Below are positions 2,397 through 62,544 of a stretch of 64,000 nucleotides of DNA, piece by piece. Origin of the DNA: Candidatus Forterrea multitransposorum CG_2015-17_Forterrea_25_41 (GTDB lineage Archaea; Iainarchaeota; Iainarchaeia; Iainarchaeales; CSSED10-239); NCBI GenBank assembly GCA_009392915.1, contig CP045477.1:96001-160000 (forward strand), read 5' to 3'. The translations under genes and the position numbers were made by a program. The number at the start of each line of letters is the position of its first letter. The stretch's first letter is position 1. Below the pieces are notes generated by a model, which saw nothing but the letters and a program-made list of their open reading frames with translations, was not told where the DNA came from and did not search any database.

Positions 2397-4484
2397 ATGC
2401 AGTTAAAGAAACTAACTTTAGTTTTATTATTTTTATTTATTTTTTCCATACCAGTTTTTTCTTCTTCTATAACTCTTTATGTTTCCTCTCCTTTTTCCTC
2501 TTCATCTTCAAATTTTAGTATTTCTCCTTCACTTTCTTTTGACAAGTTATCTTTAGTTTCAGAAGATAATTTATCTTTATTAAGAGAGCAAAATATTATT
2601 GTTAAAGAAGAAATTATTAAAGAAAAAGAATCTTCTTTAGAAGATAATTCTCTGTTAGAAGAAATAAATTCTCCAAATCATATTTATGAAACTTATTTTC
2701 AAGATTCTGTAATGATTGGAGATGTTTATTTTCCAGAAGGTATAATTGATTCTTCTCAAGTAAGAGAAAGAAGAAATATTAACTCTCAGTCTACAGTTGA
2801 TAATATTTGGGGTACCACTCCATTAACTGGAGAATATCATATTCCTGTTTTTTTAGTTGATTTTTCAGATGTTCCACATACTCTTTCTAAAGAAGTTTTT
2901 GAAGAACAATTTAATTCTCCTCTTTACTTGGACGGTAATGGTACAAGTGTAAGTCAGTATTACAAGAAACAATCCTATGGTGAACTTGATATTACTTTTG
3001 ATGTTTATGATTGGAGAGAAATGCCTGAAACTTATGAATATTATAGTACAAGATTAGGTGTTTTTGGAGCTCAAACAATAGATCTTTTTGGAACTGGTCC
3101 AAATGCAATTGATTTAACTCAATATGATTCTGATAATGATGGTAGGATAGATGGTTTTGTAATTGTTCACGCTGGTTTTTCTTTACAGAACGCTGGTACT
3201 GGTCATATTAAGACATCTACTTTATTAATGTATTCTGATGAAATTTTAACCATTCAAGGTTTGCATTATGGTAATATAGCTGTTACTTCTGAGAGATATC
3301 CTAGTTGTTCTTCTGGTTTTAATGAAAATTTAATTCCATATCCAGATGATTGTAGAATTGGTGTTTTAGATCAAACACATGAGTTTGGTCATATTTTAGG
3401 TCTTCCAGACTTTTATGGTATTGATCCAAATACTGGTGGTCAATCTCCTGGTCTTCAAAACCTAACTATGATGATGATGTATGATGACATTCCTCAAAAA
3501 CCAATTAATTTAGATGCTTGGGCAAGATATTTTTTAGGTTGGATACAACCAACTGTAATTGAAGAGGGCATGGAAGGTGTTTATCCAGTTTATTCAATTG
3601 ACACCAATCCAGATGGTGCTTTTATTTTACAAGATCTAACTGAGATGGATGAACGTGAATTTTTTATAATTGAAAATAGATTTATGCAAAACTCCCCTTA
3701 TAATCAAGATACTTTTCTTTTAAACACTTCTCAACTAAATTGGGATTATTTAAATGGTCATTTTGGTGGAATTGCAGTTTATCATGTTGATGAGCAATAC
3801 ATTGAAGATAATTATCCAACTAACAGTATCATGTGGGATCCTGATGGAGATTTTTATGATGATACTATAGGGCATCCTGGAATCGTTTTTGAAGAAAATA
3901 TAAAATTTTCAGAAAATAATTGGGATTATTCATTAGGAGATTTATATTCTAGTGAACGTAATGCTGGTTTTGGAGATAATACTTTTGGTAATTTTGATAG
4001 ATACCAAAGATTTTATCCAGAATATAATATGTTATGGGATTATCACAATAAAGCCTATAATGGTAATTTAACTGGTGTTACTGTTGGCACTTTAAGTGGT
4101 AGTGGATCTATAGTTTATGCTTATCTTCAAAGTTATCAAGAAACTTTTAATGCTTTAATCTCTTCTCCAAAAAATAACAGATGGTATAAGTATACTAATA
4201 ATTTAAATTTCATTTCAAGTTATTATAATAATTTAGGAGATGTAAGTTGTGTTTGGGAAGATTCCAGTAATAATATTCTATCTCAAGATTGTGAATTTTC
4301 TGCAACTCCAGAAGATTTAGGTTTACCAATCAGTGAATGTTCTGAGAAAATCACTCTAACTTTAGAAATAACAGATCAAGAAACTGGTGATACAATTATT
4401 GATACTGTTGATATAAAGATTTATGAAACCATAAGAGATATTTGTGAGACTGCTCATAACAACACCCAAGCAGCCACAAAATAA
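2397..4484 (+). CDS. secreted M6-family (immune inhibitor A-like) zinc metalloprotease
   Basis: N-terminal signal peptide (LTLVLLFLFIFSIPVFSSS). HEFGHILGLPDFYG matches the HExxHxLGLPDxY motif of the M6 metalloprotease domain (TIGR03296/PF05547 type). Large C-terminal non-catalytic region. Confidence 0.7.
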   Translation: MQLKKLTLVLLFLFIFSIPVFSSSITLYVSSPFSSSSSNFSISPSLSFDKLSLVSEDNLSLLREQNIIVKEEIIKEKESSLEDNSLLEEINSPNHIYETYFQDSVMIGDVYFPEGIIDSSQVRERRNINSQSTVDNIWGTTPLTGEYHIPVFLVDFSDVPHTLSKEVFEEQFNSPLYLDGNGTSVSQYYKKQSYGELDITFDVYDWREMPETYEYYSTRLGVFGAQTIDLFGTGPNAIDLTQYDSDNDGRIDGFVIVHAGFSLQNAGTGHIKTSTLLMYSDEILTIQGLHYGNIAVTSERYPSCSSGFNENLIPYPDDCRIGVLDQTHEFGHILGLPDFYGIDPNTGGQSPGLQNLTMMMMYDDIPQKPINLDAWARYFLGWIQPTVIEEGMEGVYPVYSIDTNPDGAFILQDLTEMDEREFFIIENRFMQNSPYNQDTFLLNTSQLNWDYLNGHFGGIAVYHVDEQYIEDNYPTNSIMWDPDGDFYDDTIGHPGIVFEENIKFSENNWDYSLGDLYSSERNAGFGDNTFGNFDRYQRFYPEYNMLWDYHNKAYNGNLTGVTVGTLSGSGSIVYAYLQSYQETFNALISSPKNNRWYKYTNNLNFISSYYNNLGDVSCVWEDSSNNILSQDCEFSATPEDLGLPISECSEKITLTLEITDQETGDTIIDTVDIKIYETIRDICETAHNNTQAATK

Positions 4485-4561
4485 AAAAATAAGTAAACCA
4501 TTTATATACTTTATGTTATATAATTTATAATATAATTATTTAAAATAAAAAATAAATTAAG

Positions 4562-7531
4562 GTGAATATTTTGATAAAAATAAAAAAAGGACAAATTTCT
4601 TTAGAAGCAATTATTATAATTGGTGTTATTGTTTTAGCAAGTATTATATTTGCGACATTCTATATTTCTAATGTTAATAAAAAAATAGATACTGCAAGTA
4701 ATCTAGATCCTAATTTTTCTGGAATGATTGGATCTGATGAAATGGGGTCAACTGATCCTATAACTATTGGTGAAGAACCAGGTCCAGGCCCAGGTCCAGG
4801 AGGAAGTACTTGTGGTGATAATATTATTGAAGGTACAGAAGATTGTGATGGTACTAATTTAGGTGGTGCTACATGTGAGTCTGAAGGTCAAGGTACAGGA
4901 GATTTATCTTGTAATTCAAATTGTACTTTTGATTATTCTGGTTGTTCTAGTCCAACAGCAAGTTATACAATAACTTCAAGTCATGGATCAAATGGAACTA
5001 TTTTTCCTTTAGGAGCTGTAACAGTTTTAGAAGGGGCAAGTAAAAAATTTAATTTGTATCCAAATGCAGGTTATGATGTAGATACTGTTTCAATTGATGG
5101 TGCAGAAGTTTCTCTTAGTGAAAGAAGAAGTTATACTTTTAATAATGTTACTTCCGGTCATACTATTCATGTAACTTTTAAACCTTATGCTTCAAATGAA
5201 CATATTATTTTTGCAAGTAGTGGTTCTCATGGAACCATAGATCCTGCAAGAAATAATACAGTTATAGAAGGAGATGATATTACTTTTACATTTAATCCAG
5301 ATACAGGATATCGTGTAGGTAATGTCTATATTGATGATACTACTGTTGGTTCAGAACAAATAGAGATTATTAATGATTTTTCTTCAAAAGATTCTGAAAA
5401 TAATAATTTATATTTTTCAGAAGAAGATGTTTTATATTTTGCATCTGATACAGGGACAGGTACTTCTTCAAATTTAGTTTATACTTTTGAAGATGTAGAT
5501 GATAGTCATACTATTCATGTAACTTTTATATCAAACACAACTCCTACATATACTTTAGAATATATTGCTGGAGCAAATGGTAGTATTTCTGGTCCAAATC
5601 CTCAAACTGTAAGTCAAGGAGAAGATGGTACAGAAGTATGTGCTGTTGCAGATGAAGGTTATGAATTTTTTAAATGGGATGATGATTATTATTCTGAATG
5701 TAGAACTGAAACAAATGTAACAAGTAATCAAACATATACTGTTATCTTTAATGAAAATGCAGGTCAAACAATGGCTATGAATTTAGAAGGTGTTGAATCA
5801 ACTCCAATAAATCAAAACTTTGATGTTGTTGTTAATACTTCTGAAACTCCAGGAACTGTAAGTTATGGTTTAGTTGCAGGATTATTAATTTATAATGATG
5901 TTGCAGGAGATTATTTGCCAACAAACAATTGTTCTTATAACGGAACTTTTGCTTCAAATCATACACTTGAAACAAATCAATCTCCAGGTATTGAAAATTA
6001 TACTTTTACATGTAATACTTCTGGAAACTATAAATTTACATTTACAGCAACAGATACAACTAACTCAACAAATGATGTTTCAAGAGATAAATTAATTACT
6101 GTTGTAAATAACCAAACAGCAGCACCAACATTTTCAATTGATGGAGGTACTTATTTTAATGATCAAACATTAACTTTAAGTTCAACAACTCCTAGTGCAA
6201 CTATAAAATACACAACTAATGGTACTATCCCAACTTGTACTACAGGAACAACTTATTCTCCTGCAAGTCCAATTCAAATTAATCAAATTTTAACAGTAAA
6301 AGCAATTGCTTGTAAATCTGGATATATTGATAGTCAAGTTGTTACAGAAATTTATAATTTAAAAGTTGGATATCCAGAACCAAGTGTTAATCCTGGTGTA
6401 TATTCTCAAGCACAGACAATTACTCTTTCAACAGAAACAATTGGTGCAACTTTGTATTATTCAACAGATGGTTCTGATGCTTTTGATGGAAGTGTTTACG
6501 TTCCAGGAGAAGAAATTATAATTTCAAAACCATATACTGAATTAAGAGTGGCAGGAGAAAAATCAAATTATAATGATAGTTCAGAATTTGATGAATATTA
6601 TTATATAAATGGTTATGAATCTCCAACTCCAAGTATGGTTTTTACAAATTATTATGGAGATGCATATAATCTTGTAGGTGCTGCAAATTTAACTCACTCA
6701 GATGTTTTCTTTGAAGATGAAGAAAATAATTTAGTAAGATTTGTTAATCCTAAATTAAATGGAGATTATTTTAACGGAAGTAATGCTTCAGGAGCTACAT
6801 TAATAGATTGTGAGGCATTTTGTTCTGAAAAGTATCTTGGAGGAACTTGTGATTCTTTTGATAAAACTAATTATTCTGGAAATGCAAATAATTTGATATA
6901 TTATAGAAATATGATTCCTGGTTCTGGTGGTGCAAATGATGTTTTCCCTTACACAATTGGGGGTGAGTTATCTAATTCTCCTCAATGGGCTTATGCTTCT
7001 GGAGCTATTGGTGGACCAGATAGAGTAGGATACTTCACTTGTGATTTTTCACACACCTCCAGTCCAGAAGATGCAGACTTTGGATTTATTGATTTATATA
7101 CTGAAGATTTATTATTAAATTATGGTGATCCATTTGATGGTACAGAATTCTATTATGATTCTTCAAGAGTAACTTTTGATAATGTTACAAAGTCTGGTTC
7201 AGAATATACTTATTCAGGTTTAAATGTTGTAGGTAATTTTGACACACCAGGCGCAACTGCTCCAACAGGAACAGTTTATATACTTTCAGATGATTTTTCA
7301 CAAGCTTGTGATGCTGTATGTGATGCTTTATATCAAGAAAGTTCTTGTGAAAATTATGATACAACAGATGTATATACTGCTAAAGGAGTTTCATATAATT
7401 ATTATCCTCCTGAATATGCAACAATATTTAATCCTAATTTAAGTACAGGTTATTATTGGACATCTGGAAGTCAACTTTTCTATGATGTTTGGTCAGAAGC
7501 TGTTCTTTCAGAAGTTACTTGTTCAAAGTAA
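4562..7531 (+). CDS. giant surface adhesin-like protein with archaeal class III (type IV pilin-like) signal peptide
   Basis: N-terminus ..IKIKKG|QISLEAIIIIGVIVLASIIF: short basic leader, G|Q, S+3, E+5, hydrophobic helix (QxSxE, DUF361-type). SD AAGGTGA 4559-4565 favours TTG 4571 as the real start. Also has a PGPGPGPGG linker and a Cys-rich CGDN..EDCDG..C..C repeat. Contains repeated ~80-aa beta modules (YTITSSHGSNGTI / HIIFASSGSHGTI / YTLEYIAGANGSI) and two TIKYTTNGT / TLYYSTDGS modules. Confidence 0.75.
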   Translation: MNILIKIKKGQISLEAIIIIGVIVLASIIFATFYISNVNKKIDTASNLDPNFSGMIGSDEMGSTDPITIGEEPGPGPGPGGSTCGDNIIEGTEDCDGTNLGGATCESEGQGTGDLSCNSNCTFDYSGCSSPTASYTITSSHGSNGTIFPLGAVTVLEGASKKFNLYPNAGYDVDTVSIDGAEVSLSERRSYTFNNVTSGHTIHVTFKPYASNEHIIFASSGSHGTIDPARNNTVIEGDDITFTFNPDTGYRVGNVYIDDTTVGSEQIEIINDFSSKDSENNNLYFSEEDVLYFASDTGTGTSSNLVYTFEDVDDSHTIHVTFISNTTPTYTLEYIAGANGSISGPNPQTVSQGEDGTEVCAVADEGYEFFKWDDDYYSECRTETNVTSNQTYTVIFNENAGQTMAMNLEGVESTPINQNFDVVVNTSETPGTVSYGLVAGLLIYNDVAGDYLPTNNCSYNGTFASNHTLETNQSPGIENYTFTCNTSGNYKFTFTATDTTNSTNDVSRDKLITVVNNQTAAPTFSIDGGTYFNDQTLTLSSTTPSATIKYTTNGTIPTCTTGTTYSPASPIQINQILTVKAIACKSGYIDSQVVTEIYNLKVGYPEPSVNPGVYSQAQTITLSTETIGATLYYSTDGSDAFDGSVYVPGEEIIISKPYTELRVAGEKSNYNDSSEFDEYYYINGYESPTPSMVFTNYYGDAYNLVGAANLTHSDVFFEDEENNLVRFVNPKLNGDYFNGSNASGATLIDCEAFCSEKYLGGTCDSFDKTNYSGNANNLIYYRNMIPGSGGANDVFPYTIGGELSNSPQWAYASGAIGGPDRVGYFTCDFSHTSSPEDADFGFIDLYTEDLLLNYGDPFDGTEFYYDSSRVTFDNVTKSGSEYTYSGLNVVGNFDTPGATAPTGTVYILSDDFSQACDAVCDALYQESSCENYDTTDVYTAKGVSYNYYPPEYATIFNPNLSTGYYWTSGSQLFYDVWSEAVLSEVTCSK

Positions 7532-22380: not shown

Positions 22381-25300
22381 ATGAAAAATAAGATACTAAT
22401 AATTTTTTTATTTACAATTTTACTTTCAACTTTTATTTTTTCAGATCCTGTTGTAAAGATAAATGATAATTTAACAACATATACAAACAGTGATTCTGAA
22501 AACTTCTATGTTGAAGTAAGTAATACTGGAGATAATTGTGAAGTTGAATCTGATTTTATAAGTATTAATTTAAGTTCAGATGCAGCAAGTTCTTTTCCAT
22601 ATTTAATATACTGTAATCTTGAAAGAAATTATAGTGGTTATTTTTCAGTAGATTTTTCAACAAACACACCAACACCTCCAATACCAAATGTTTTAGTTAA
22701 TAATGAAGATACTGTTATTGCAGACTATAATGGGTTTACTGCTAATTTAGTAGTTGACACAATAAATACTATAACAGGAACTTTTGATTTAAATTCTGTT
22801 GATTCAGTTGTAAATAATTACTATAAAGGAGATGTTGAAGTTACTTCTTTAAGTTCTTTTTCAGATGCACATTCTGGTTTAAAAGAATATTACATTTATA
22901 TTGTTGAAGTTGATTCAGTAAATGACTATAGAGATGATTATTATAAGAGATTAATTGTAGATGTTAATGAAACTTCTATTGATTTAGGTACATCTACAAC
23001 TGTTTCTGATGGAAATTATTTTGTTTTAGTTGAAGCTTTAGATTATGCTGAAAATCTTGCAATACCTTCTCAAGTAATTTTAAATAAAAAAAATATGTAT
23101 GTTGATAATACAGCACCTCAAGTAACTTCTTTTAGTTTAGGAAGTTTTTCAGAAGGTACAACTTATTATGTTCCTTCAACAACTACTACTTTGACTTTAT
23201 TAATTGAAGATGATGGTGTAGGGGTAAGGAATGAACCTCTATATACACAAATAGATAGAGATAGTGTAAAGTTAGCAGATTATAATTCTATATTAGGCGG
23301 TTTCTTTTTTGATTTTACAACAGTTGATTATGATATTGATGGTTCATATGAGCTTGCAGCAACAGATCTTTTAGGTAATTTAAATGAAAAAACATTTTCA
23401 ATAATGATAGATGAAACTTCTCCAACAACTCCAACAATTTCAACAGTTACAAGAGCTGTAGATAATAATGTTACAATTTCAAATTGGGGTACTTCAACTG
23501 ATTCTGGAAGTGGTTTAAAAGAATACAAAGTCTATAGGTCAACTTCTTCTTTTACAGAAGTTTCAAATCAAGATTTAATTTGTACAGTTTCTGCAGCTGC
23601 TTCAAAAACTTGTCTTGATTCAACTTCAAAATCAGATGATACAAGATATTATTATGGTGTTACTGCAGTTGATAATGCAGGAAATAATAGTCCAGTTGTA
23701 ACTGCAAGCATAAAAACAGGTCCTGAACTTGATATTTATATTGATTTAGAAGATTCTGATTTTGTAAATACTGTTACTCCAGAGATAACTTTAGAGTATG
23801 GTTCTGATGTTAATGCTGTTAGATTTAGTTGTAATGCTTCAACTTTTACATCATGGGTTGAAGTTTCGGGAACTTCTGAGGTTTATGAAAGTTTTAATGT
23901 AACTTCTGGAAATGGATGTAATACAGATCAAGGAGATAAAATAATTTATGTTGAAGCAAGAAGTGAAGACGATCCTTATCTTATTACTAGAGAATCTTTT
24001 GAGTTTGAACTTGATTCAAAAGCACCAACAATACCTAGTAACATAGAAGTTTTAGAACAAGCAAATGGTTCTTTAAATATTTCTTGGACAAGCTCAACAG
24101 ATGTAAATGGTAGTGGTCTTGAAGAATACAGGATTTATTATTCAGAATCTGAGTCAGTTTCTAAATCCTCACAATATATGACTTCTTCAGATGAAGAGTA
24201 TATTTTTAATCCTAATGAAGATAAAACATTTTATTTTAAAATATCTGCAATTGATGAAGCATTAAATGAATCTGATCTTTCATCTATTGCTTCTGGAACT
24301 GCAAAAAGATTTGGACCTTCTTTTACTTTTAATGCAAGCCCAAAAAATTTAATTGATGATGTTTATTATTTAAAAAAAGGAAATGTTTTATTTACTATTA
24401 CAAGTAGTGAAGAATTAAAACAAACACCTATTATTAGACTTAAAATTGGTAATTCACCTTATAAATCAATTTCTGCAATTTATAGTAATTTAATTACAAC
24501 TTTTAATTATTCTTTAGAAGAAAGTGGAGATTCAATTTTAGAAATTACAGGTACAAATAATAATAATGAAACAACAACTGATACTTTTAATTTTATAGTA
24601 GATGCAGAAGTTCCAACTTTTACTGCTGACTATAATTTCTTTGAAGATACTAAATTATATGAATTTAAAATAAGTGATTTTTCAGATGATGTTTTCAGAG
24701 TTCAATATTTATTTAATAATGTTGAAGAAGTTTGTTTTATTGAAGATTCAAATAACAATTATCTTTGTTCACTTGATTCTACTCTTTATAAAGATGGTAA
24801 TCATAAAATGTATGTTTTAGTTTATGATAGAGCATTAAATTATGAAACTGAAATTATTTCTTTTGAAATAGATAATGTTGATGAAGCTTTAATTTTAAAA
24901 GAAAATTTAGTTGCTGAAATTAATACAAATATTTTTACAATTGAAGATAGAATTTCTTTCCTTCAAGCAATCTCTTTAGAAGTTTCTCAAGATGTTTTAG
25001 ATAAATTTTCTGAAGCTAAAGAAAAAGTTGTTCTTGCAAAATCTCTAGAAGATTCAAATAATTTTTCAGAAGCTGTAAATACTTATACTTCTGTAAATAA
25101 TTCTTTACTTGAGATATTAGAAGTTTTACCTACAGAAAATGTTTTAAAAACAAAAACTATTGAAATTGATCTTTTAGATAATTCTTTTGATCTTAATACA
25201 GTTATTTTGGATCAAAATATATTAACTGATAATTTGTCTTTTTATGATGTTAATAATCAAGACCTAAATTTTATATCAGTTTCAAGAGAATTTAGTGTTT

Positions 25301-25959
25301 TTGAAGTATCTGGTCAAAACTTTTATTCTAGTAATTTAATTTTTGTAAATGACTCTAATGTAGATAAAGTAATTTCTTTTATTGAAGTAATACCTAAAGA
25401 ATTTGAAAAATCTTCAGATAATATTTATTTTGATAGAAATATTGTTGTAATTGATAAAGATCCAATAATTCTTTATAATTTAGTAATTCCTAAAAATTCT
25501 TCTCTTACAACAAAATATATTAGTCAAACAGCAATTACAAGTTTTGATATTTTAACTAAATTTGATGCAATTGTTTACAAGTCTCCTCTTCTTTTAACTG
25601 GATCTGTAAATTTAGAAGATTTAAATTTTGAAAAACCTTTAATTGATAGTAAATCTTTATTTATGATAGCAGTTGTTCTTTTAATAATAATTATCTTACT
25701 TTTAGTAATCTGGATGGTGGCTTCTGGTCGTAAGAAAAAAGAAGATGTCTTTAAAGAAATGGAACCTAAGGATGCTATGAATAAATATCTTGGAAATAAA
25801 CTAAATAGTAATTCTCAAGAAAAATCTTCAACTGATTCTTCTTCATCTAAAACTTTAGAAGAAAAAGAAGAAGAGCATAAAAGTGATCTTGAAAAGAAAA
25901 AGAAGTATGATAGTAATTATGAGTTTATTTTAGATGCTGTTAAAAGAAGTAATAAATAA
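22381..25959 (+). CDS. large type-I membrane surface protein with Fn3-like repeats
   Basis: Signal peptide. Repeated modules containing [HG]SGL[KE]EY.[IV]Y ... A.D.A.N.S (three copies). C-terminal TM LFMIAVVLLIIIILLLVIWMV plus K/E/S-rich cytoplasmic tail. Confidence 0.6.
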   Translation: MKNKILIIFLFTILLSTFIFSDPVVKINDNLTTYTNSDSENFYVEVSNTGDNCEVESDFISINLSSDAASSFPYLIYCNLERNYSGYFSVDFSTNTPTPPIPNVLVNNEDTVIADYNGFTANLVVDTINTITGTFDLNSVDSVVNNYYKGDVEVTSLSSFSDAHSGLKEYYIYIVEVDSVNDYRDDYYKRLIVDVNETSIDLGTSTTVSDGNYFVLVEALDYAENLAIPSQVILNKKNMYVDNTAPQVTSFSLGSFSEGTTYYVPSTTTTLTLLIEDDGVGVRNEPLYTQIDRDSVKLADYNSILGGFFFDFTTVDYDIDGSYELAATDLLGNLNEKTFSIMIDETSPTTPTISTVTRAVDNNVTISNWGTSTDSGSGLKEYKVYRSTSSFTEVSNQDLICTVSAAASKTCLDSTSKSDDTRYYYGVTAVDNAGNNSPVVTASIKTGPELDIYIDLEDSDFVNTVTPEITLEYGSDVNAVRFSCNASTFTSWVEVSGTSEVYESFNVTSGNGCNTDQGDKIIYVEARSEDDPYLITRESFEFELDSKAPTIPSNIEVLEQANGSLNISWTSSTDVNGSGLEEYRIYYSESESVSKSSQYMTSSDEEYIFNPNEDKTFYFKISAIDEALNESDLSSIASGTAKRFGPSFTFNASPKNLIDDVYYLKKGNVLFTITSSEELKQTPIIRLKIGNSPYKSISAIYSNLITTFNYSLEESGDSILEITGTNNNNETTTDTFNFIVDAEVPTFTADYNFFEDTKLYEFKISDFSDDVFRVQYLFNNVEEVCFIEDSNNNYLCSLDSTLYKDGNHKMYVLVYDRALNYETEIISFEIDNVDEALILKENLVAEINTNIFTIEDRISFLQAISLEVSQDVLDKFSEAKEKVVLAKSLEDSNNFSEAVNTYTSVNNSLLEILEVLPTENVLKTKTIEIDLLDNSFDLNTVILDQNILTDNLSFYDVNNQDLNFISVSREFSVFEVSGQNFYSSNLIFVNDSNVDKVISFIEVIPKEFEKSSDNIYFDRNIVVIDKDPIILYNLVIPKNSSLTTKYISQTAITSFDILTKFDAIVYKSPLLLTGSVNLEDLNFEKPLIDSKSLFMIAVVLLIIIILLLVIWMVASGRKKKEDVFKEMEPKDAMNKYLGNKLNSNSQEKSSTDSSSSKTLEEKEEEHKSDLEKKKKYDSNYEFILDAVKRSNK

Positions 25960-36791: not shown

Positions 36792-38186
36792 ATGAACAAA
36801 AATTTAACAAAATTATTTTTCTGGATATTTGGTATAATATTCAGTGGAATTTTTTATTTTTTCTCAAAAACATCTACTTCTTTATCATATATTAATGAAA
36901 TTAAGTTTCTTCCATACGTAATAATGTTAATAATTATTTTGTTATTTTTCTTAATTGGTATTTTATTTTCGAAAATACCTTTTTTTTGGTATTCAAAATT
37001 TAGAAAATCCAATCTTAATGAAGTTTTATCTGAAGTTGATGTAAAAAAAACTGAAGAAAATATTGATCAATTAATTGATAAATTAAAAGATGCTATAAAA
37101 AATATTAGTAAAAGTAATTATTCTCAAATATCTATAAATTATTTAATAAAGAATGTAGGTATTTCAAAAGAAAGTGCAGATGGAATTATTAAAAATATAA
37201 AGAGATTAAAAAGATTAAAAACTTTATCAATAGCTTTAGGAATTATAATTTCTTTAGGTTTATATTTTTTTGTAAGTAGTTTACCAGTATTTAATATTAT
37301 TCCAAATTATGTGTTTATAATATCTGCAGTAATTATTTTTCTTTTATTTGTTTTAGAAGGTTATTTAATTACAAGAATGCCTGATTCATTTTATTTAAAT
37401 TTAATTAATATAAATAAAGAAAAAATATTAGAAGTTAAAAGAGAATCTTTAGAAAAAGAAGAAAAGTTAAATAATTATAATCAAAAACAAAAAGGTTTGT
37501 TAGATAATATTCAAAAAGCAACTAAATTTCTTTTATCTCAAGATGTAAGTAAAGAAGCAATTTCTAATTTCTTTAGTAAATATGATGTTGATCAGTCTAC
37601 AATTTCAAAATTTATTGAACTTTCAGAAAAAGAATTAAATATTGAAAAGAATAATTCTGGAAAAGTTTTATTTAATGCAAAATCAGATTCTGCAATAAGA
37701 TTAACTCTTTCTAAAATACACGATAGTTTTGAACAAATTAATCAAATATATAATGAAGTTTCAAAACTTCAAAAAGAAGTAAGTGATATTTCTCAAAGAC
37801 AAGAAAAACTTGAAAAAATGTCAACTATTAGTGTTTCAAAAGAAGTTAAAAAACTTAAAAAAGAACCAATAATGTCAAACAAGTATAAGGATTTAAAAAA
37901 AGCAGATCCTAAAGAAATTAAAGAATTGTTAGATAAAAGAAATGAAGAATATGATAAACTTATAAGTTATTTATATCACTTGTTCTTACCATCTGTTGAA
38001 ACTTCTTCTCAAAATGATGTTTTTTCTACATTAGTTTATTATGGTTATCCTTATGAGATTGTAGAAGATGTTTTACAAAAGTTTAAAGATAAAAAAATTA
38101 ATTTCGGGAAAGATAAAAAAGTATCTTTCTCTGAAAAATTAGTAAATAAAATTAATGGTTTTTATGAATTATTTGCCTCTAAATAA
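36792..38186 (+). CDS. uncharacterised 4-TM / coiled-coil protein, paralog A (see 49583-50956)
   Basis: Two TM hairpins separated by a helical loop, a long K/E-rich helical region, and a small C-terminal domain. Clear by-eye paralogy with the 457-aa ORF at 49583. Confidence 0.6.
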   Translation: MNKNLTKLFFWIFGIIFSGIFYFFSKTSTSLSYINEIKFLPYVIMLIIILLFFLIGILFSKIPFFWYSKFRKSNLNEVLSEVDVKKTEENIDQLIDKLKDAIKNISKSNYSQISINYLIKNVGISKESADGIIKNIKRLKRLKTLSIALGIIISLGLYFFVSSLPVFNIIPNYVFIISAVIIFLLFVLEGYLITRMPDSFYLNLININKEKILEVKRESLEKEEKLNNYNQKQKGLLDNIQKATKFLLSQDVSKEAISNFFSKYDVDQSTISKFIELSEKELNIEKNNSGKVLFNAKSDSAIRLTLSKIHDSFEQINQIYNEVSKLQKEVSDISQRQEKLEKMSTISVSKEVKKLKKEPIMSNKYKDLKKADPKEIKELLDKRNEEYDKLISYLYHLFLPSVETSSQNDVFSTLVYYGYPYEIVEDVLQKFKDKKINFGKDKKVSFSEKLVNKINGFYELFASK

Positions 38187-49582: not shown

Positions 49583-50956
49583 ATGGGTTATTCTTTTAAA
49601 AAAGAAAGTAGATTATTTTTTTGGATATTAAGTATTTTACTTTCTTCATTAATATTTTCTATATTATATTTCTTCCAAGTGTTTGGAAGTTCTCAAAATA
49701 ATTCTCTTTCATTTATCTTTTCATTAATTATTTTAATTGTTTTATTTATTGTTGGTATGTTTAATTATAAACTTACAACAAAGCTATATGGTTTTATTTC
49801 TTCACAAAGAGATTTATCTAAACTTATAAGTAGAATTAATCTAGATGATTCTGAAGAAAATATTCAAAAAATGATTAGTAGATTTAAAGAAGTTTTTTAT
49901 AATCTTGATCTTTCAGATAAAGAAGGTTCAATTTTAATTATTAGAAAAACTGTTGGCTTAGATTCTGATGCTGCTTTCAAAGTATATAAGATTCTAAAAA
50001 ATATTAGTTTTACAAAAAATGTTTTAACTATTTCTGGTTTTTTAATATCTGTAATTGTTTATTTTATAATTACAAAAATTAATTTTTTTAATATTATTAC
50101 TGAAACTAAGTTTTTCCCACTTGCAATTTCTTTATTATTATTTTTTATATTTTTATTTGAAAGTAGATTGTCTTCTAAAATACCTTCTAGTTTTTATATT
50201 AACCTTGTAATTATTAATAAAAAAGCATTAACAAATAGTAAAAAGGATGTAATTGATAGTGAAAATCAATTAAATAATATTTTTAAAAAAAGAGATGAAA
50301 TTAGAGAAAAAATAAAAGATATTGTTTTTAATTTAACAAAACAAGGTTTTAAAAAAAAAGATGTTGTTGAAATAATTAATTCTAGAAAAAAAGATTCTTA
50401 TGGTCTAAAAGATTTAATTATGCAATCAAATGAAGATTTTAATTCAGAAGCAAAAAAAGCTTCTTTTAAAGATGTTTCTTTAGATATTGAGAATATTTTA
50501 AAATTTTATGAAGATGTTAAAAATAAAGAAAAAGAAGTGCTTTCTTTAAAAGAGAAAATAAACCAAATTAGAGAAATTCAAGAAACTGTTGAAAAAATAA
50601 ATTCTAATGATTGGGATTATTATAAAAATATTAAATTTAATTTAAATAAATCTAAAGAATTTGAAAGAAACATAACTGATGAAATTTCAAGTAAATTACA
50701 TCATAGATCTGAACTTAAGGAAGATAAAGAAGTTATAATTAAAAATTTATATAATTTATTCATAAATTATAAAGACTCAATTACAAAAGATCAAGTTTAT
50801 TCTTTTTTAATTTCTAAAGGTTATTGTTATGAAACTATTATGGATCTTTTTGATGAATTTAAGAAAAATAATATTGATTTAACTAAAAATAAAAAAACTT
50901 TTCAAGACAAAATTATTTCAAAGATTAATAATGTTTATGAAAGTTTTAAAGATTAG
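49583..50956 (+). CDS. uncharacterised 4-TM / coiled-coil protein, paralog B (see 36792-38186)
   Basis: Same architecture and shared strings as paralog A: LFFWI, SEENIQ/TEENID, [KR][IM]P[SD]SFY[IL]NL[VI][IN]INK, C-terminal ..GY.YE.[IV].D...[EK]FK...I......K..F..K[IL][IV][SN]KIN..YE.F. Confidence 0.6.
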   Translation: MGYSFKKESRLFFWILSILLSSLIFSILYFFQVFGSSQNNSLSFIFSLIILIVLFIVGMFNYKLTTKLYGFISSQRDLSKLISRINLDDSEENIQKMISRFKEVFYNLDLSDKEGSILIIRKTVGLDSDAAFKVYKILKNISFTKNVLTISGFLISVIVYFIITKINFFNIITETKFFPLAISLLLFFIFLFESRLSSKIPSSFYINLVIINKKALTNSKKDVIDSENQLNNIFKKRDEIREKIKDIVFNLTKQGFKKKDVVEIINSRKKDSYGLKDLIMQSNEDFNSEAKKASFKDVSLDIENILKFYEDVKNKEKEVLSLKEKINQIREIQETVEKINSNDWDYYKNIKFNLNKSKEFERNITDEISSKLHHRSELKEDKEVIIKNLYNLFINYKDSITKDQVYSFLISKGYCYETIMDLFDEFKKNNIDLTKNKKTFQDKIISKINNVYESFKD

Positions 50957-57595: not shown

Positions 57596-58099
57596 ATGTT
57601 AAATAATAAAGTTAATGCTGTAATTGACTCTTCATTTTGGATAAACTTGAGTAGAGTTGATCTTACAAAATATTTATTAGATTATTTTACTATTTATTCT
57701 ACCATAAAAGTAAAAGAAGAACTTTTTGATTTTTACGAAAGAAGAGGTTATTTTTCAAAAGATTCTTATCTTTTTAAGTTATATTTAGAAGCAGATTTTA
57801 TTATTTTAAAAGACCTTAAAGAAATTACTTTAAAAATAAAGCAAGAATTGTCAAAAGATTCTGGAGAGTTATATTCTGCTGCTCTTTTAAAGGAAATTGG
57901 AGGTGTTTTTTTAACAGATGATAAGGGGGCACTTAATTTTTGCAAAAATAATAATCTTTTTGCAATTACTTCTGTTTATTTAATAGTTAGACTTTATAAG
58001 GATAATTTAATATCAAAAGAAAAAGCTAAATTTTCAATTATGCGATTAAAAGGAAAAATAAGTAATATACATATACAATCTGCTTTAAAGGATTTATAG
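57596..58099 (+). CDS. PIN-like nuclease, DUF3368-type toxin
   Basis: N-terminal VIDSSFWINL (acidic PIN site), later ..GELYSAALLKEIG..FLTDDKGA... Directly followed by a UPF0175 gene, the usual partner of DUF3368. Confidence 0.6.
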   Translation: MLNNKVNAVIDSSFWINLSRVDLTKYLLDYFTIYSTIKVKEELFDFYERRGYFSKDSYLFKLYLEADFIILKDLKEITLKIKQELSKDSGELYSAALLKEIGGVFLTDDKGALNFCKNNNLFAITSVYLIVRLYKDNLISKEKAKFSIMRLKGKISNIHIQSALKDL

Positions 58100-58119
58100 T
58101 ATAAAAGGAGGTTTTTAAC

Positions 58120-58476
58120 ATGGTTAAAAAAGATTATAAATTGAAATCTTATAGATTATCTGATAGTTCCTTAAAATTAATATATAATGTTTCTAAAGAA
58201 AAAGATTTGAGTGAATCTGAAGCTTTAAGAATGTTAGTTGACAAAGGGCTTTATGAATATAAGTTAGAGTCAGCAATAAAAACATATTATGATAAAAATT
58301 TAGATTTAACTGCTGGAGCAAAACTTGCTGGTATTTCCAAAAGAGAGTTTATGGAAGAACTTTCAAGAAAAGGGGAAGGTATTAATCTTTCAAAAGAAGA
58401 TTATGATTATTCTAAAAAATCTTTTGAAAAATTATTTGGAAAAACAAAAAAGAAAACTACTCAAAAGCCCAAGTAG
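58120..58476 (+). CDS. UPF0175-family antitoxin-like protein
   Basis: ..AIKTYYDKNLDLTAGAKLAGISKREFMEELSRKGEGI matches the UPF0175 core. The N-terminal part looks RHH-like (KSYRLSDSSLKLI). Confidence 0.6.
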   Translation: MVKKDYKLKSYRLSDSSLKLIYNVSKEKDLSESEALRMLVDKGLYEYKLESAIKTYYDKNLDLTAGAKLAGISKREFMEELSRKGEGINLSKEDYDYSKKSFEKLFGKTKKKTTQKPK

Positions 58477-60141: not shown

Positions 60142-62544
60142 ATGCAAAAGAGATTAGGTATTTTAGGTATTTTTTTAATAGTTTTAATGTTTGTTTTTTC
60201 ATCAGGCTTTGTTTTTGCTGAAAATTCATTTGTAAGTTATAGTTCTACTTCAAAAGTAGGTTGGGAAATAACTTCTGCTGAAATTACAAATGATAATATT
60301 GAAATTAATTACATGAATAATCTTGAAGCAAGAGATTCTTGTAAAACAAATGAAAGAACTTTTATGTGGGTTCCTTTTGCAACAGAATATAGAGGTTTGT
60401 TTTTAGTAACTCTTTTTGTTCCTAATAATTTTAATAATGAATCTGGATTTGATTCATTTTTGTATGATAATTTGTCTGACAGAGGAAAAAGTGAAAATGA
60501 AACAGAAGATACTCTTAAAAAATATGAACGATATTTAAAAAGTAATGATCCTACTTTTATGAATTATTTAAATAGTTATGTTAGTGAAGATAAATATTTT
60601 TATATAGTTAAAATTGAAGATGATTTTAAACAAAATAAAAATTATACTCATAATATTGATTTAAGTATGATTAATGAATTAGATAAATTTGGAAAAGTTT
60701 ATATTTATTTATATGATCATTGTGGAAGTTTATCTTCATTTTATCATAATGACTATAAAATTTCTAAAAATCTTGCGAAAGCAGTTTATAATTTTAGTGA
60801 TGGTCAAGAAGAAACTTCTAAAAAAGAAAATGCTACTTCAATAAAATTATCTTCTTCTATTGAAGATAATAAAATAAAATTAGATTCAAATGTTACTGAT
60901 AATGTTAATATTTATTATACATTAGATGATTTTAATTTAGAAAACCATTTTAAATCAAAATTTGTTGAATTTAATTATAATAAAGAAAAAATAAATACTT
61001 ATCTTAAAAGTAATTCTTGGAATATTAATCAATTTGGGGTAAATTTTAAAGTGACTAAATATACTGCACCTGTATCTTTATCTTCTGGACAAAAACTAAA
61101 TGCAATTGCAGTTAATTATGATAATTTTACTTTAAGTAATTATCTTGAAGGAATTACTCTTTCATCTTCTGAAAATTATTCTTCATCTTCTCAAAGCAAT
61201 AATTTTTCAATTAACTTTAAAGAAGATAAAAAAACAGATAATGTGATTTGTGAAAAGGAAACAAAAATTTGTTATGTTAAATTTAATCAAAACATTGATT
61301 TAGATTTAATTGCAAATAAAGTAAATGATGGAAATGTTTATTTTTATATTAATGATATAGAAGGAGATATTGAAAATATTGTAAAAAGCTTATCTTCTCC
61401 TCTTTTAAATATTACACCACCTGCTAAATTAAATGATAATAAACTAAGTTTAGGAAGTAATTTATTCAAATATTCAGATTTAGAAAATTATACTCTAAAT
61501 CTTAATCAAAATGAATCAAAGTTTTTTACTATTAGTGCTTTCCAATTAAATACAAATGTTGATAAGTTATATTTTGTATTTTTACCTGACGAAAACTTTG
61601 AAGATTTAGTAAAATATAAAACTTTACAAAAAATAATAAATTCTGTATATTGTGATGGTTGTAAAATTCCAGATTGGATGCCAAATGGATTAATAATTGA
61701 TAATCAAAATTTATCTACTAGTGATCCTGATCCTTCTACTAGTGATCCTGATCCTTCTACTAGTGATCCAAATTGTAAATATACTGGTGATTTTGAAATT
61801 TTATGTGATTTTCATATCTTTAATTTAGATAAAGATATTGGAAGTAGTTCTATTGATAGTTCAGCAGGAACATTTAGCCCTAAAGAAACATATTATTTAG
61901 AAATTGAATATTTTTATAATGATAAAAAAAATAATTTTAATAAAAATTTAGAAGCTTATAAATTATTTGAATCTGAAAAAAATAATTTTAATCTTACTGA
62001 AAATGAAATTACAATATTTTTTTCAATAATTGGAGGAGAATCCTCTTTTTTAAATGATCAAGCTGGTGATCAAGGAGAATCTATAGGTTTAACTCAAATA
62101 AATAAACCTATATGGAGAACAGAAAGTGGTTTTAATGATCTAAAAGTATATCTTCCAAGTGAAGTTAATACAGTTGAAAAATATTATAAATATTTTGATG
62201 ATTCTAAAAATGATTTAAATAAATCTTTATATTTAGGTCTTGCAGTTTTTAAATATAATTTAAATTATGCTAAAAATAATATTTCTAACTTTAATTCAAA
62301 GTATTCAGATATTGATAGAGCATTTATAATGTTTTACGCACACCAGTTTAATATAAGAGATACAAAAACATTCTTTAATACTGTAAATATTCCTACAGAT
62401 AAAGAAAATGTAATTATTAATTGTGCAGGAACTGGTAATGATTTATTCCAAAATTCTTCTTTAAAGAAACTTGGTTGTGTTGCGACTGTAGGTTCTGTAA
62501 GAAAAATTGGATGGTATCTTAATTACATAAATAATTTAAATTAA
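60142..62544 (+). CDS. secreted 800-aa protein with C-terminal lytic-transglycosylase-like (SLT, PF01464-like) domain
   Basis: Signal peptide LGIFLIVLMFVFSSGFVFA. C-terminal ..IIGGESSFLNDQAGDQGESIGLTQI.. matches the SLT pattern ES.F...A.S..GA.GLMQ. Downstream ..LYLGLAVFKYNL.. and ..FIMFYAHQ.. resemble later SLT helices. An STSDPDP linker precedes it. Confidence 0.55.
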   Translation: MQKRLGILGIFLIVLMFVFSSGFVFAENSFVSYSSTSKVGWEITSAEITNDNIEINYMNNLEARDSCKTNERTFMWVPFATEYRGLFLVTLFVPNNFNNESGFDSFLYDNLSDRGKSENETEDTLKKYERYLKSNDPTFMNYLNSYVSEDKYFYIVKIEDDFKQNKNYTHNIDLSMINELDKFGKVYIYLYDHCGSLSSFYHNDYKISKNLAKAVYNFSDGQEETSKKENATSIKLSSSIEDNKIKLDSNVTDNVNIYYTLDDFNLENHFKSKFVEFNYNKEKINTYLKSNSWNINQFGVNFKVTKYTAPVSLSSGQKLNAIAVNYDNFTLSNYLEGITLSSSENYSSSSQSNNFSINFKEDKKTDNVICEKETKICYVKFNQNIDLDLIANKVNDGNVYFYINDIEGDIENIVKSLSSPLLNITPPAKLNDNKLSLGSNLFKYSDLENYTLNLNQNESKFFTISAFQLNTNVDKLYFVFLPDENFEDLVKYKTLQKIINSVYCDGCKIPDWMPNGLIIDNQNLSTSDPDPSTSDPDPSTSDPNCKYTGDFEILCDFHIFNLDKDIGSSSIDSSAGTFSPKETYYLEIEYFYNDKKNNFNKNLEAYKLFESEKNNFNLTENEITIFFSIIGGESSFLNDQAGDQGESIGLTQINKPIWRTESGFNDLKVYLPSEVNTVEKYYKYFDDSKNDLNKSLYLGLAVFKYNLNYAKNNISNFNSKYSDIDRAFIMFYAHQFNIRDTKTFFNTVNIPTDKENVIINCAGTGNDLFQNSSLKKLGCVATVGSVRKIGWYLNYINNLN
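61714..61770 (+). repeat. perfect 21-nt in-frame tandem repeat (2.7 copies) encoding STSDPDP
   Basis: TCTACTAGTGATCCTGATCCT at 61714-61734 and 61735-61755, then TCTACTAGTGATCCA at 61756-61770. Confidence 0.95.

Follow-up and report, generated by a model that had tools for sequence, protein, structure and literature searches.

The giant gene and its start codon

The stretch of DNA considered here (hereafter the window) comprises 64,000 nucleotides of the archaeon Candidatus Forterrea multitransposorum (contig CP045477.1, positions 96,001 to 160,000), and the subject of this work is one of its genes, which encodes a giant protein of almost 1,000 residues with an N-terminus resembling that of type IV pilins. 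The source archaeon is of the DPANN or 'Iainarchaeum' type, with about 24% GC and a small genome (0.66-0.84 Mb). Its nearest named relative is the metagenome-assembled genome (MAG) 'Candidatus (I)ainarchaeum sp. STF1_257', and genes identical to those of the window lie on the assembly GCA_009994275.1. Pfam scans of the window recovered, among others, the ribosomal proteins S9, S2, L7Ae, S28e, L24e, S6e and S24e, together with aIF5B, aIF2-gamma, a thermosome subunit, GatD/GatE and Alba, and the giant gene sits alone within the cluster of ribosomal-protein genes. Its product is known in public annotation only as a [quoted passage not shown].

The open reading frame (ORF) runs from 4562 to 7531 on the forward strand, as do all the features of the giant gene described below. 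Its N-terminus can be written M(NIL)IKIKKG|QISLEAIIIIGVIVLASIIF, and in translation it reads MNILIKIKKGQISLEAIIIIGVIVLASIIFATFYISNVNKK. The true start is more likely TTG 4571 than GTG 4562, because the AGGTGA (4560-4565) of a Shine-Dalgarno-like AAGGTGA (4559..4565), read from the sequence 5 nt upstream of the TTG, overlaps the GTG itself, and because both gene callers and NCBI place the first codon of the orthologues at the equivalent position (MTKIKKGQ, MIKIKKGQ, MTRIKKGQ). From the TTG, the protein has 986 residues and a leader of seven, MIKIKKG, which would be ten residues long from GTG 4562. Residue numbers are counted from TTG 4571 unless marked as GTG-numbered.

A class III signal at the N-terminus

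The leader (4571..4591), with a predicted cleavage after Gly7, falls within a match to the Pfam model PF04021 (Class_IIIsignal, formerly DUF361) and is followed by the mature N-terminus Q8-K38 (4592..4684), made up of QISLE, an alpha-1-type hydrophobic helix and a conserved FYxSNxNKK end. The whole N-terminus is thus MIKIKKG|QISLEAIIIIGVIVLASIIFATFYISNVNKK, beginning with QISLEAIII after the predicted cut. Gly occupies position -1, Gln +1, Ser +3 and Glu +5, ahead of about 25 hydrophobic residues, and position +9 is Ile, not the Leu of QXSXEXXXL. The latter, DUF361-type pattern is the one cleaved by EppA of Methanococcus maripaludis, where Gly -1, Gln +1 and Glu +5 are conserved (PMC2910488, PMC3875500). 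PF04021 aligned with the giant protein over all 27 model positions. With only the first 40 residues as input it scored 30.1 bits (E 4.5e-7), above its gathering score of 23.7, and with the full protein 23.5 bits (E 5.3e-5), 0.2 below that score. The helix, which AlphaFold2 places at residues 11-42 with a predicted local distance difference test score (pLDDT) of ~58-64, is the sole hydrophobic segment of the protein, and there is no C-terminal anchor.

Among the 153 ORFs of at least 40 residues in the window, the class III motif was found in the giant ORF alone, and the same holds when ~20 kb of extra flank are included. Other large surface proteins of the window, namely an M6 protease and proteins of 1,192, 800 and 401 residues, have ordinary Sec-type signal peptides, in some cases with C-terminal anchors as well, so the class III N-terminus is not the default export signal of this genome. 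The identity of the N-terminus of the giant protein as a true class III signal, of EppA/DUF361 type, is well supported, and we consider it highly probable.

One narrower assignment was tried and rejected. The model TIGR04205, for class III proteins associated with archaeosortase D and PIP-CTERM, gave 17.9-21.2 bits against a cut-off of 65, and the giant protein ends in ...LSEVTCSK, without a hydrophobic C-terminal sorting signal.

Domain architecture of the giant protein

Behind the helix comes a flexible linker of about 40 residues (residues 39-80; 4685..4810), which shows no secondary structure in the AlphaFold2 model (pLDDT ~25), differs in length among orthologues and ends in a PGPGPGPGG hinge (residues 70-78; 4778-4804) read from the sequence. 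The linker leads to a single module of six cysteines (C81-C125; 4811..4945) with the pattern CGDNIIEGTEDCDG...C...C..C...C, kin to DUF4215 and to the Myxococcus cysteine-rich repeat. With phmmer, 5,217 representative proteins were retrieved at E<=1e-3; the best matches listed align at residues ~79-127, that is, at the six-Cys module, whose relatives are mostly bacterial proteins with 5-31 tandem copies. Two of the homologues score above the cut-off of TIGR02232 (P0207 and P0160) and one of them above that of DUF4215 too (P0207), while the module of the giant protein itself stays below threshold (DUF4215, PF13948: 14.4 bits vs 27).

Three beta modules like the B-repeats of InlB follow (residues ~130-205, 206-322 and 327-396; 4958..5758). 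They are recognised by PF18998 (Flg_new_2), with 45.6 bits on the third (GTG-numbered residues 330-399) and 33.9 on the first two, the gathering score being 23.6; the first module reaches a pLDDT of 70-78, and the region is aligned by 119 of the 120 homologues among the matches listed. The next segment (residues ~400-520; 5768..6130) is an Ig-like beta-sandwich domain with one Cys pair (C454, C481). Its Ig-type Pfam matches are weak at best (Big_9, E 0.012), and AlphaFold2 models beta strands there with a pLDDT of 55-69. This domain is kept in the homologue P0016, and in a paralogue of 344-347 residues the corresponding BLASTP match is marginal (residues 446-502, E 0.096). Two CHB_HEX_C_1 / Fn3_assoc domains (residues ~524-665; 6140..6565) come next: PF13290 scores 70.5 bits over two stretches, against a gathering score of 22, and PF13287 scores 48.8 bits.

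The last ~320 residues (666-986; 6566..7531, stop codon included) form an orphan C-terminal region with two units of four cysteines each, at 747, 751, 760 and 824 and at 913, 917, 926 and 984. Pfam and PDB sequence searches gave no match for this region, the only PDB sequence match being a chance one to a viral polymerase (E 0.01), and among the matches listed it is aligned by four close orthologues only (74-100% identity). To our eyes the Cys units recall C-type lectin-like domains (C..A.C..GG...W...xC[DE]), a presumed likeness that no search result backs. AlphaFold2 gave a pLDDT of 32.6 for the C-terminal 321 residues, modelled with four orthologues. The full-length model, built from five sequences, has a mean pLDDT of 38.5 and is poor outside the helix at the N-terminus, B-repeat 1, the Ig-like domain and a single CHB domain. 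Over its whole length, the giant protein contains 26 N-x-S/T sequons, where shuffled sequence contains 16.3 +/- 3.4, and its 20 cysteines are grouped in even numbers per domain, two features that fit an extracellular glycoprotein. Its only hydrophobic element is the predicted class III signal peptide of EppA/PibD type.

An earlier reading of this DNA, made by a model from the letters (the original prediction), had described much of this layout. The pilin-like N-terminus is present just as it was described, from Gly -1 through Gln +1, Ser +3 and Glu +5 to the helix, and its assignment to the QxSxE/DUF361 prepilin pattern agrees with the PF04021 match, with the positions conserved in homologues and with the paralogues of 59-172 residues that have the same N-terminus (see below). 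The PGPGPGPGG hinge and the Cys-rich unit are likewise both there, but the unit is no repeat: it occurs once, and tandem copies are found only in other, mostly bacterial, proteins. Similarly, the more than 900 residues of repeated beta-rich modules proposed in that reading do include three B-repeats, an Ig-like domain and two CHB_HEX_C_1 domains, but they are not of a single repeat type and include two Cys-containing orphan units.

A family of small and giant proteins with the same helix

An alignment of the N-terminus was scanned against genome and metagenome collections, which yielded 23 loci (referred to by L numbers), and these, together with the other loci fetched, gave 28 distinct family proteins. 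The motif that they share is K-[GA]|Q-x-[STA]-[IL]-E followed by the helix. K at -2 and G or A at -1 occur in 28 of 28 distinct members and Glu +5 is invariant, an invariance that is partly circular, since the retrieval patterns contained motif positions. K(-2), G/A(-1), Q(+1) and E(+5) are kept in homologues down to 35-45% identity, and most members end the helix with a FYxSNxNKK-like motif. The loci are all AT-rich (23-32% GC), and the contigs are apparently those of DPANN-type archaea.

What varies in this family is the cargo. Pilin-sized members have 59, 93, 97, 128, 140, 141, 153 and 172 residues, and the larger ones 347, 443, 480, 521, 562-569, 736, 784, 864, 950, 983-989, 1,015, 1,109 and 1,118; the homologue P0016 (L003, L016), with 1,155-1,165 residues, has the N-terminus of the 950-residue member and was counted once with it. 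Besides CHB_HEX_C_1, other giants of the family carry GLUG and Peptidase_M26_N regions. One conserved helix, a variable cargo and members of pilin size are what one would expect to see in a pilin family.

Class III genes often form clusters of two to five neighbours, and small genes adjoin giant ones in L003, L005, L016, L021, L023, L025, L026, L028 and L030. The 128-residue member corresponds to the first ~130 residues of the giant protein (leader, helix, linker and Cys module) with nothing after them, and it is encoded directly upstream of a homologue of 950-1,165 residues in three loci (L003:227-613, L005:9386-9772 and L016:216-602), which makes it a candidate for a major subunit. A 172-residue class III protein has the same position upstream of a giant homologue in L021 (9286-9804). 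In the own lineage of the giant protein, only the paralogue of 344-347 residues was found, which has its first 145 residues in common with the giant protein. The 347-residue version occurs in the same MAG as the orthologue of the giant protein, and a 344-residue version in the sample series of the window genome.

The sole link of this family to assembly machinery comes from L030:1-6557, a contig cut at both ends, where five class III genes come immediately after two genes for T2SSF platform proteins (57.7 and 52.6 bits). The class III products have 59 residues (helix only, of Flp size), 153 (PF04021, 34.4 bits), 521, 480 and more than 411 residues. No ATPase or peptidase is visible on this related AT-rich contig, which seems to bear a type IV pilus locus. 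A locus with two platform genes has been described for the archaeal 'system 1', reported in some DPANN (bioRxiv 10.64898/2026.04.22.720090).

Several other observations were made at the family loci. In L007 (2524-3667) and L017 (3431-4081, reverse strand), the Cys-rich paralogue of 344-347 residues is closely preceded by a gene for a DsbA-like thioredoxin (PF13462, 119 bits). In L007 a small membrane protein containing CPGC adjoins the DsbA-like gene, and one of the two loci has ~6 kb of sugar-metabolism genes that the other lacks. In L023 (3-3871) and L025 (4532-8323), which represent one lineage, two class III genes (562 or 89 residues, then 93-96) lie between FtsY, recognised from its sequence motif only, and SRP54, confirmed by Pfam; the latter is the gene with 'GSGKTT' and is not a PilB-type ATPase. 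A 236-residue KaiC-family ATPase (PF06745, 204.7 bits) is encoded divergently from class III genes in L027:412-1122, L028:5772-6482 and L029:9174-9566 (reverse strand), and a conserved gene of 223 residues, ScpA-like by eye only, lies downstream of the class III genes, in an order kept in the three loci. Finally, the contig L006 (CAYNMU010000050.1) is labelled 'uncultured Eubacteriales bacterium', but the ORFs compared match those of the archaeal MAG contig L005 in sequence and position, so it is probably mis-binned.

Divergence between strains and the adjoining protease

The giant gene adjoins a gene for a secreted metalloprotease of the M6 (InhA-like) family (2397..4484, forward strand), matched by PF05547 and TIGR03296, and the two genes keep their synteny in L001, L004, L011, L032 and L034. 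When the window was compared with two related strains (L001/L014/L034 and L004), the two genes stood out as an island of divergence. Between window positions ~2,000 and 7,550, nucleotide identity is 85-92%, while outside it is mostly 96-100%, with a few segments at 92-95%. At the protein level, the giant protein is 83-84% identical between strains and the M6 protease 87-88%, in a setting where flanking proteins are mostly 97-100% identical. Identity is 95-97% for S6e and S24e, 99.75% for a downstream CARDB surface protein and, in one strain, 92% for L7Ae, the immediate neighbour of the island.

Within the island, synonymous and non-synonymous divergence are both raised, with a dS of ~0.2 and a dN/dS of ~0.4-0.6. 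The helix and the adjacent linker are the least-changed segments of the protein, with non-synonymous differences (pN) of 0.01-0.03 and 0.04-0.05, respectively, and the third B-repeat and the C-terminal units are among the most variable ones (pN 0.09-0.13). The paralogue of 344-347 residues is likewise divergent (91-93%, vs 97.5% for its flanks). Such a pattern is in keeping with diversifying selection on surface proteins, or with exchange of their alleles. Synteny and co-variation also suggest that the M6 protease and the giant protein may be functionally tied.

Other genes of the window

Further large secreted proteins are encoded in the window: one of 1,192 residues (22381-25959), with a Sec-type signal peptide and a C-terminal transmembrane anchor, which may be S-layer-like; one of 800 residues (60142-62544), also with a Sec-type signal peptide; and one of 1,289 residues, from ~62611 on (L009:12470-16339). 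In Pfam scans, none of the three scored above gathering except for Big_13 (29.7 vs 27) on the 1,192-residue protein. Two membrane proteins of ~460 residues (36792-38186 and 49583-50956) are paralogous (27% identity over 428 residues, E 5e-35) and have no Pfam match. Their middle regions are rich in lysine and glutamate and, from their composition by eye, possibly coiled-coil. At 57596-58476 lie the genes for a DUF3368 (PIN-like) and a UPF0175 protein, identified through precomputed Pfam matches of the identical L009 genes, which are a likely toxin-antitoxin pair.

Pilin, membrane anchor or ordinary export signal

Tentatively, we favour the idea that the giant protein is a modular minor or tip pilin, whose cleaved helix would join a type IV pilus-like filament of small paralogues and whose cargo would act as an adhesin. 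The protein would first be inserted into the membrane, where a prepilin-type peptidase would cut off MIKIKKG. The new N-terminal helix (Q8-K38, with Glu +5) could then serve as a type IV pilin alpha-1 helix, through which the protein would enter a type IV pilus-like filament as a minor subunit, probably at the tip; the body of that filament would be built of the pilin-sized paralogues with the same helix. Finally, thanks to the ~40-residue PG-rich linker, the 900-residue cargo would dangle outside the filament and act as an adhesin for a putative ligand. This cargo consists of a disulfide knot, the three B-repeats, the Ig-like domain, the two CHB_HEX_C domains and both orphan Cys domains.

A number of observations weigh against this explanation. 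Neither a T2SSE ATPase nor a T2SSF platform protein nor an A24 peptidase was found in the 64-kb window and its ~20 kb of flank (~84 kb in total), where essentially all window ORFs were submitted to Pfam and all the fetched DNA was scanned for Walker A and GxGDxK motifs; the motif scans picked up SRP54, FtsY, an ABC ATPase and a small P-loop protein, and nothing else. Motif scans and inspection by eye revealed no machinery genes within 10 kb of eight other well-flanked loci of the family either, and the L030 member that does adjoin platform genes belongs to a different organism and is only ~44% identical to the giant protein over 34 residues. The giant gene has no small paralogue next to it. 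In the AlphaFold2 model, moreover, no globular head packs on the helix, which is followed by ~85 structureless residues (pLDDT 24-64, low), and a cargo of 100 kDa may fit a filament only at its tip. Finally, class III signal peptides of archaea are well known from proteins other than filament subunits (PMC2910488; bioRxiv 10.64898/2026.04.22.720090). On the other hand, archaea commonly carry pilin genes that stand on their own, remote from the machinery (PMC4858521, PMC3875500), so the absence of machinery from the locus is weak counter-evidence, and helix-only pilins of the Flp/Epd type do exist (PMC3875500).

Alternatively, the class III leader may be cleaved and the protein not polymerised, the helix holding it in the membrane or in a short, bindosome-like or pseudopilus-like envelope structure as a cell-surface adhesin or other envelope protein. 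We see this as a serious possibility, somewhat less probable than the tip pilin. Substrate-binding proteins, proteases and other exoproteins of archaea have class III signals and form no visible pili (PMC2910488; bioRxiv 10.64898/2026.04.22.720090), and the ~84 kb without assembly genes, the long unstructured linker in place of a pilin head and the very large cargo all point the same way. Against it, the paralogues of 59-172 residues share the helix but lack any cargo that it could anchor and are best understood as filament subunits, Glu +5 is invariant throughout, and in L030 a family member adjoins T2SSF genes.

Quite improbable, in our opinion, is an uncleaved signal-anchor, which would make the giant protein a type II membrane protein and its class III likeness functionally meaningless. 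The hydrophobic stretch is indeed of transmembrane length (~25 residues) and has Lys residues on both flanks, no peptidase gene was seen in the ~84 kb around the gene, and the PF04021 score of the full protein falls those 0.2 bits under the cut-off. Yet K-2, G/A-1, Q+1, S/T+3 and E+5 are kept in front of unrelated cargo and in helices only 35-50% identical, which is unexpected for a plain anchor, and the same model reaches 30.1 bits on the N-terminus alone and 34.4 on a family member. The remaining alternative, a soluble secreted protein released by signal peptidase I from an ordinary Sec signal peptide, is very improbable: a basic n-region does precede a hydrophobic region, and the neighbouring M6 protease and other large proteins of the window are of Sec type, but ~25 residues are too long for an h-region, an acidic residue stands at its start, the small-x-small cleavage site is missing where the helix runs into the conserved FYISNVNKK, and the true Sec signal peptides of this genome look different.

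The tip pilin that we favour can be extended into a more speculative and rather unlikely proposal, in which these AT-rich archaea of small genome would have a pilin family of their own with interchangeable cargo on one conserved helix, small Cys-knob pilins would build the filament, the hypervariable giants would be host-recognition adhesins at its tip that act with the co-varying M6 protease, and the island of the two genes would be a host-range locus of an episymbiont. Whichever way it is held, on a pilus or in the membrane, the giant protein is probably a large, fast-evolving adhesin with the helix as its attachment. The original prediction of a giant adhesin anchored by a pilin helix finds support in the single hydrophobic segment, the 26 sequons, the paired cysteines, the Ig-like domain and B-repeats and the fast divergence, without being demonstrated by them; the filament into which it placed the protein is not established, with no machinery in ~84 kb on one side and, on the other, a distant member beside the two T2SSF genes of L030.

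Cultivated DPANN archaea depend on contact with a host cell, and their mode of attachment is poorly understood. With a pilin-type N-terminus, a cargo that may be absent altogether or exceed 1,100 residues and a strong divergence between near-identical strains, the proteins of this family are concrete candidates for attachment factors. They would extend to archaea the idea of modular pilins, so far described for bacteria; the gain is a useful family of candidates rather than a new mechanism, since the principle is already known.

Comparison with known systems

Large non-pilin proteins with class III signals, large adhesin-like or minor-pilin proteins of archaea and modular pilins of bacteria have all been described before, the first of them since FlaFind (PMC2910488). 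What is new here is one unannotated DPANN family and its variability at the strain level, not a principle.

The closest parallel is found in the EppA-dependent pilins and pilin-like proteins of Methanococcus maripaludis (EpdA-C, MMP1685 and the larger MMP0600/0601/0709). They too have a short leader ended by Gly, Gln +1, Glu +5, a hydrophobic helix and PF04021, they likewise comprise tiny helix-only (Flp-like) members next to much larger ones, and their genes are also scattered away from the assembly genes (PMC3875500, PMC2910488). Unlike them, the giant protein has 986 residues, of which ~900 are adhesin-type domains, Ile instead of Leu at +9 and a DPANN-type archaeon as its source; no EppA, ATPase or platform gene is seen in ~84 kb around it, and its processing is a predicted one.

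In its plan, the giant protein resembles the bacterial modular type IV pilins, such as PilB and PilC of Streptococcus sanguinis, where adhesion modules are grafted through a linker on a pilin N-terminus (PMC8179133). More than 1,200 of these proteins, thought to sit at the filament tip, were surveyed by Raynaud et al. in 2021, with a multi-domain extreme of 860 residues in a bacterium of the Candidate Phyla Radiation (PMC8179133). A modular pilin is defined there as a pilin motif plus at least one non-pilus domain, and the giant protein has PF04021 and then Flg_new_2 and CHB_HEX_C_1/Fn3_assoc, although the original definition used the bacterial IPR012902. The bacterial proteins combine the N-methylation motif of IPR012902 with a globular pilin module, whereas here the archaeal PF04021 comes with what is apparently a helix only, and the cargo proteins are larger (986 to 1,165 residues across the family).

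The adhesins and minor pilins of archaeal type IV pilus loci are comparable as well, being large, secreted, rich in Ig folds, Cys-containing and predicted to work together with type IV filaments of archaea (Makarova et al. 2016, PMC4858521; bioRxiv 10.64898/2026.04.22.720090). They are defined, however, by the adjoining ATPase and platform genes, whereas the giant gene stands alone in a ribosomal-protein cluster, and their domains are DUF2341 / PilY-like and arCOG05616, instead of the B-repeats, CHB_HEX_C domains and orphan C-terminus found here. Lastly, the PibD-processed bindosome proteins of Sulfolobus share with the giant protein a class III signal on a large extracellular protein that is no pilin, and their helix is proposed to hold them in an envelope-associated oligomer. 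They differ from it in their substrate-binding-protein domain, as Pfam and NCBIfam scans of the giant protein recovered no solute-binding-protein family, and the motif of the latter is of the Q+1/E+5 type, which is missing in Sulfolobus pilins (PMC3875500, in a statement that covers the pilins and not the bindosome proteins).

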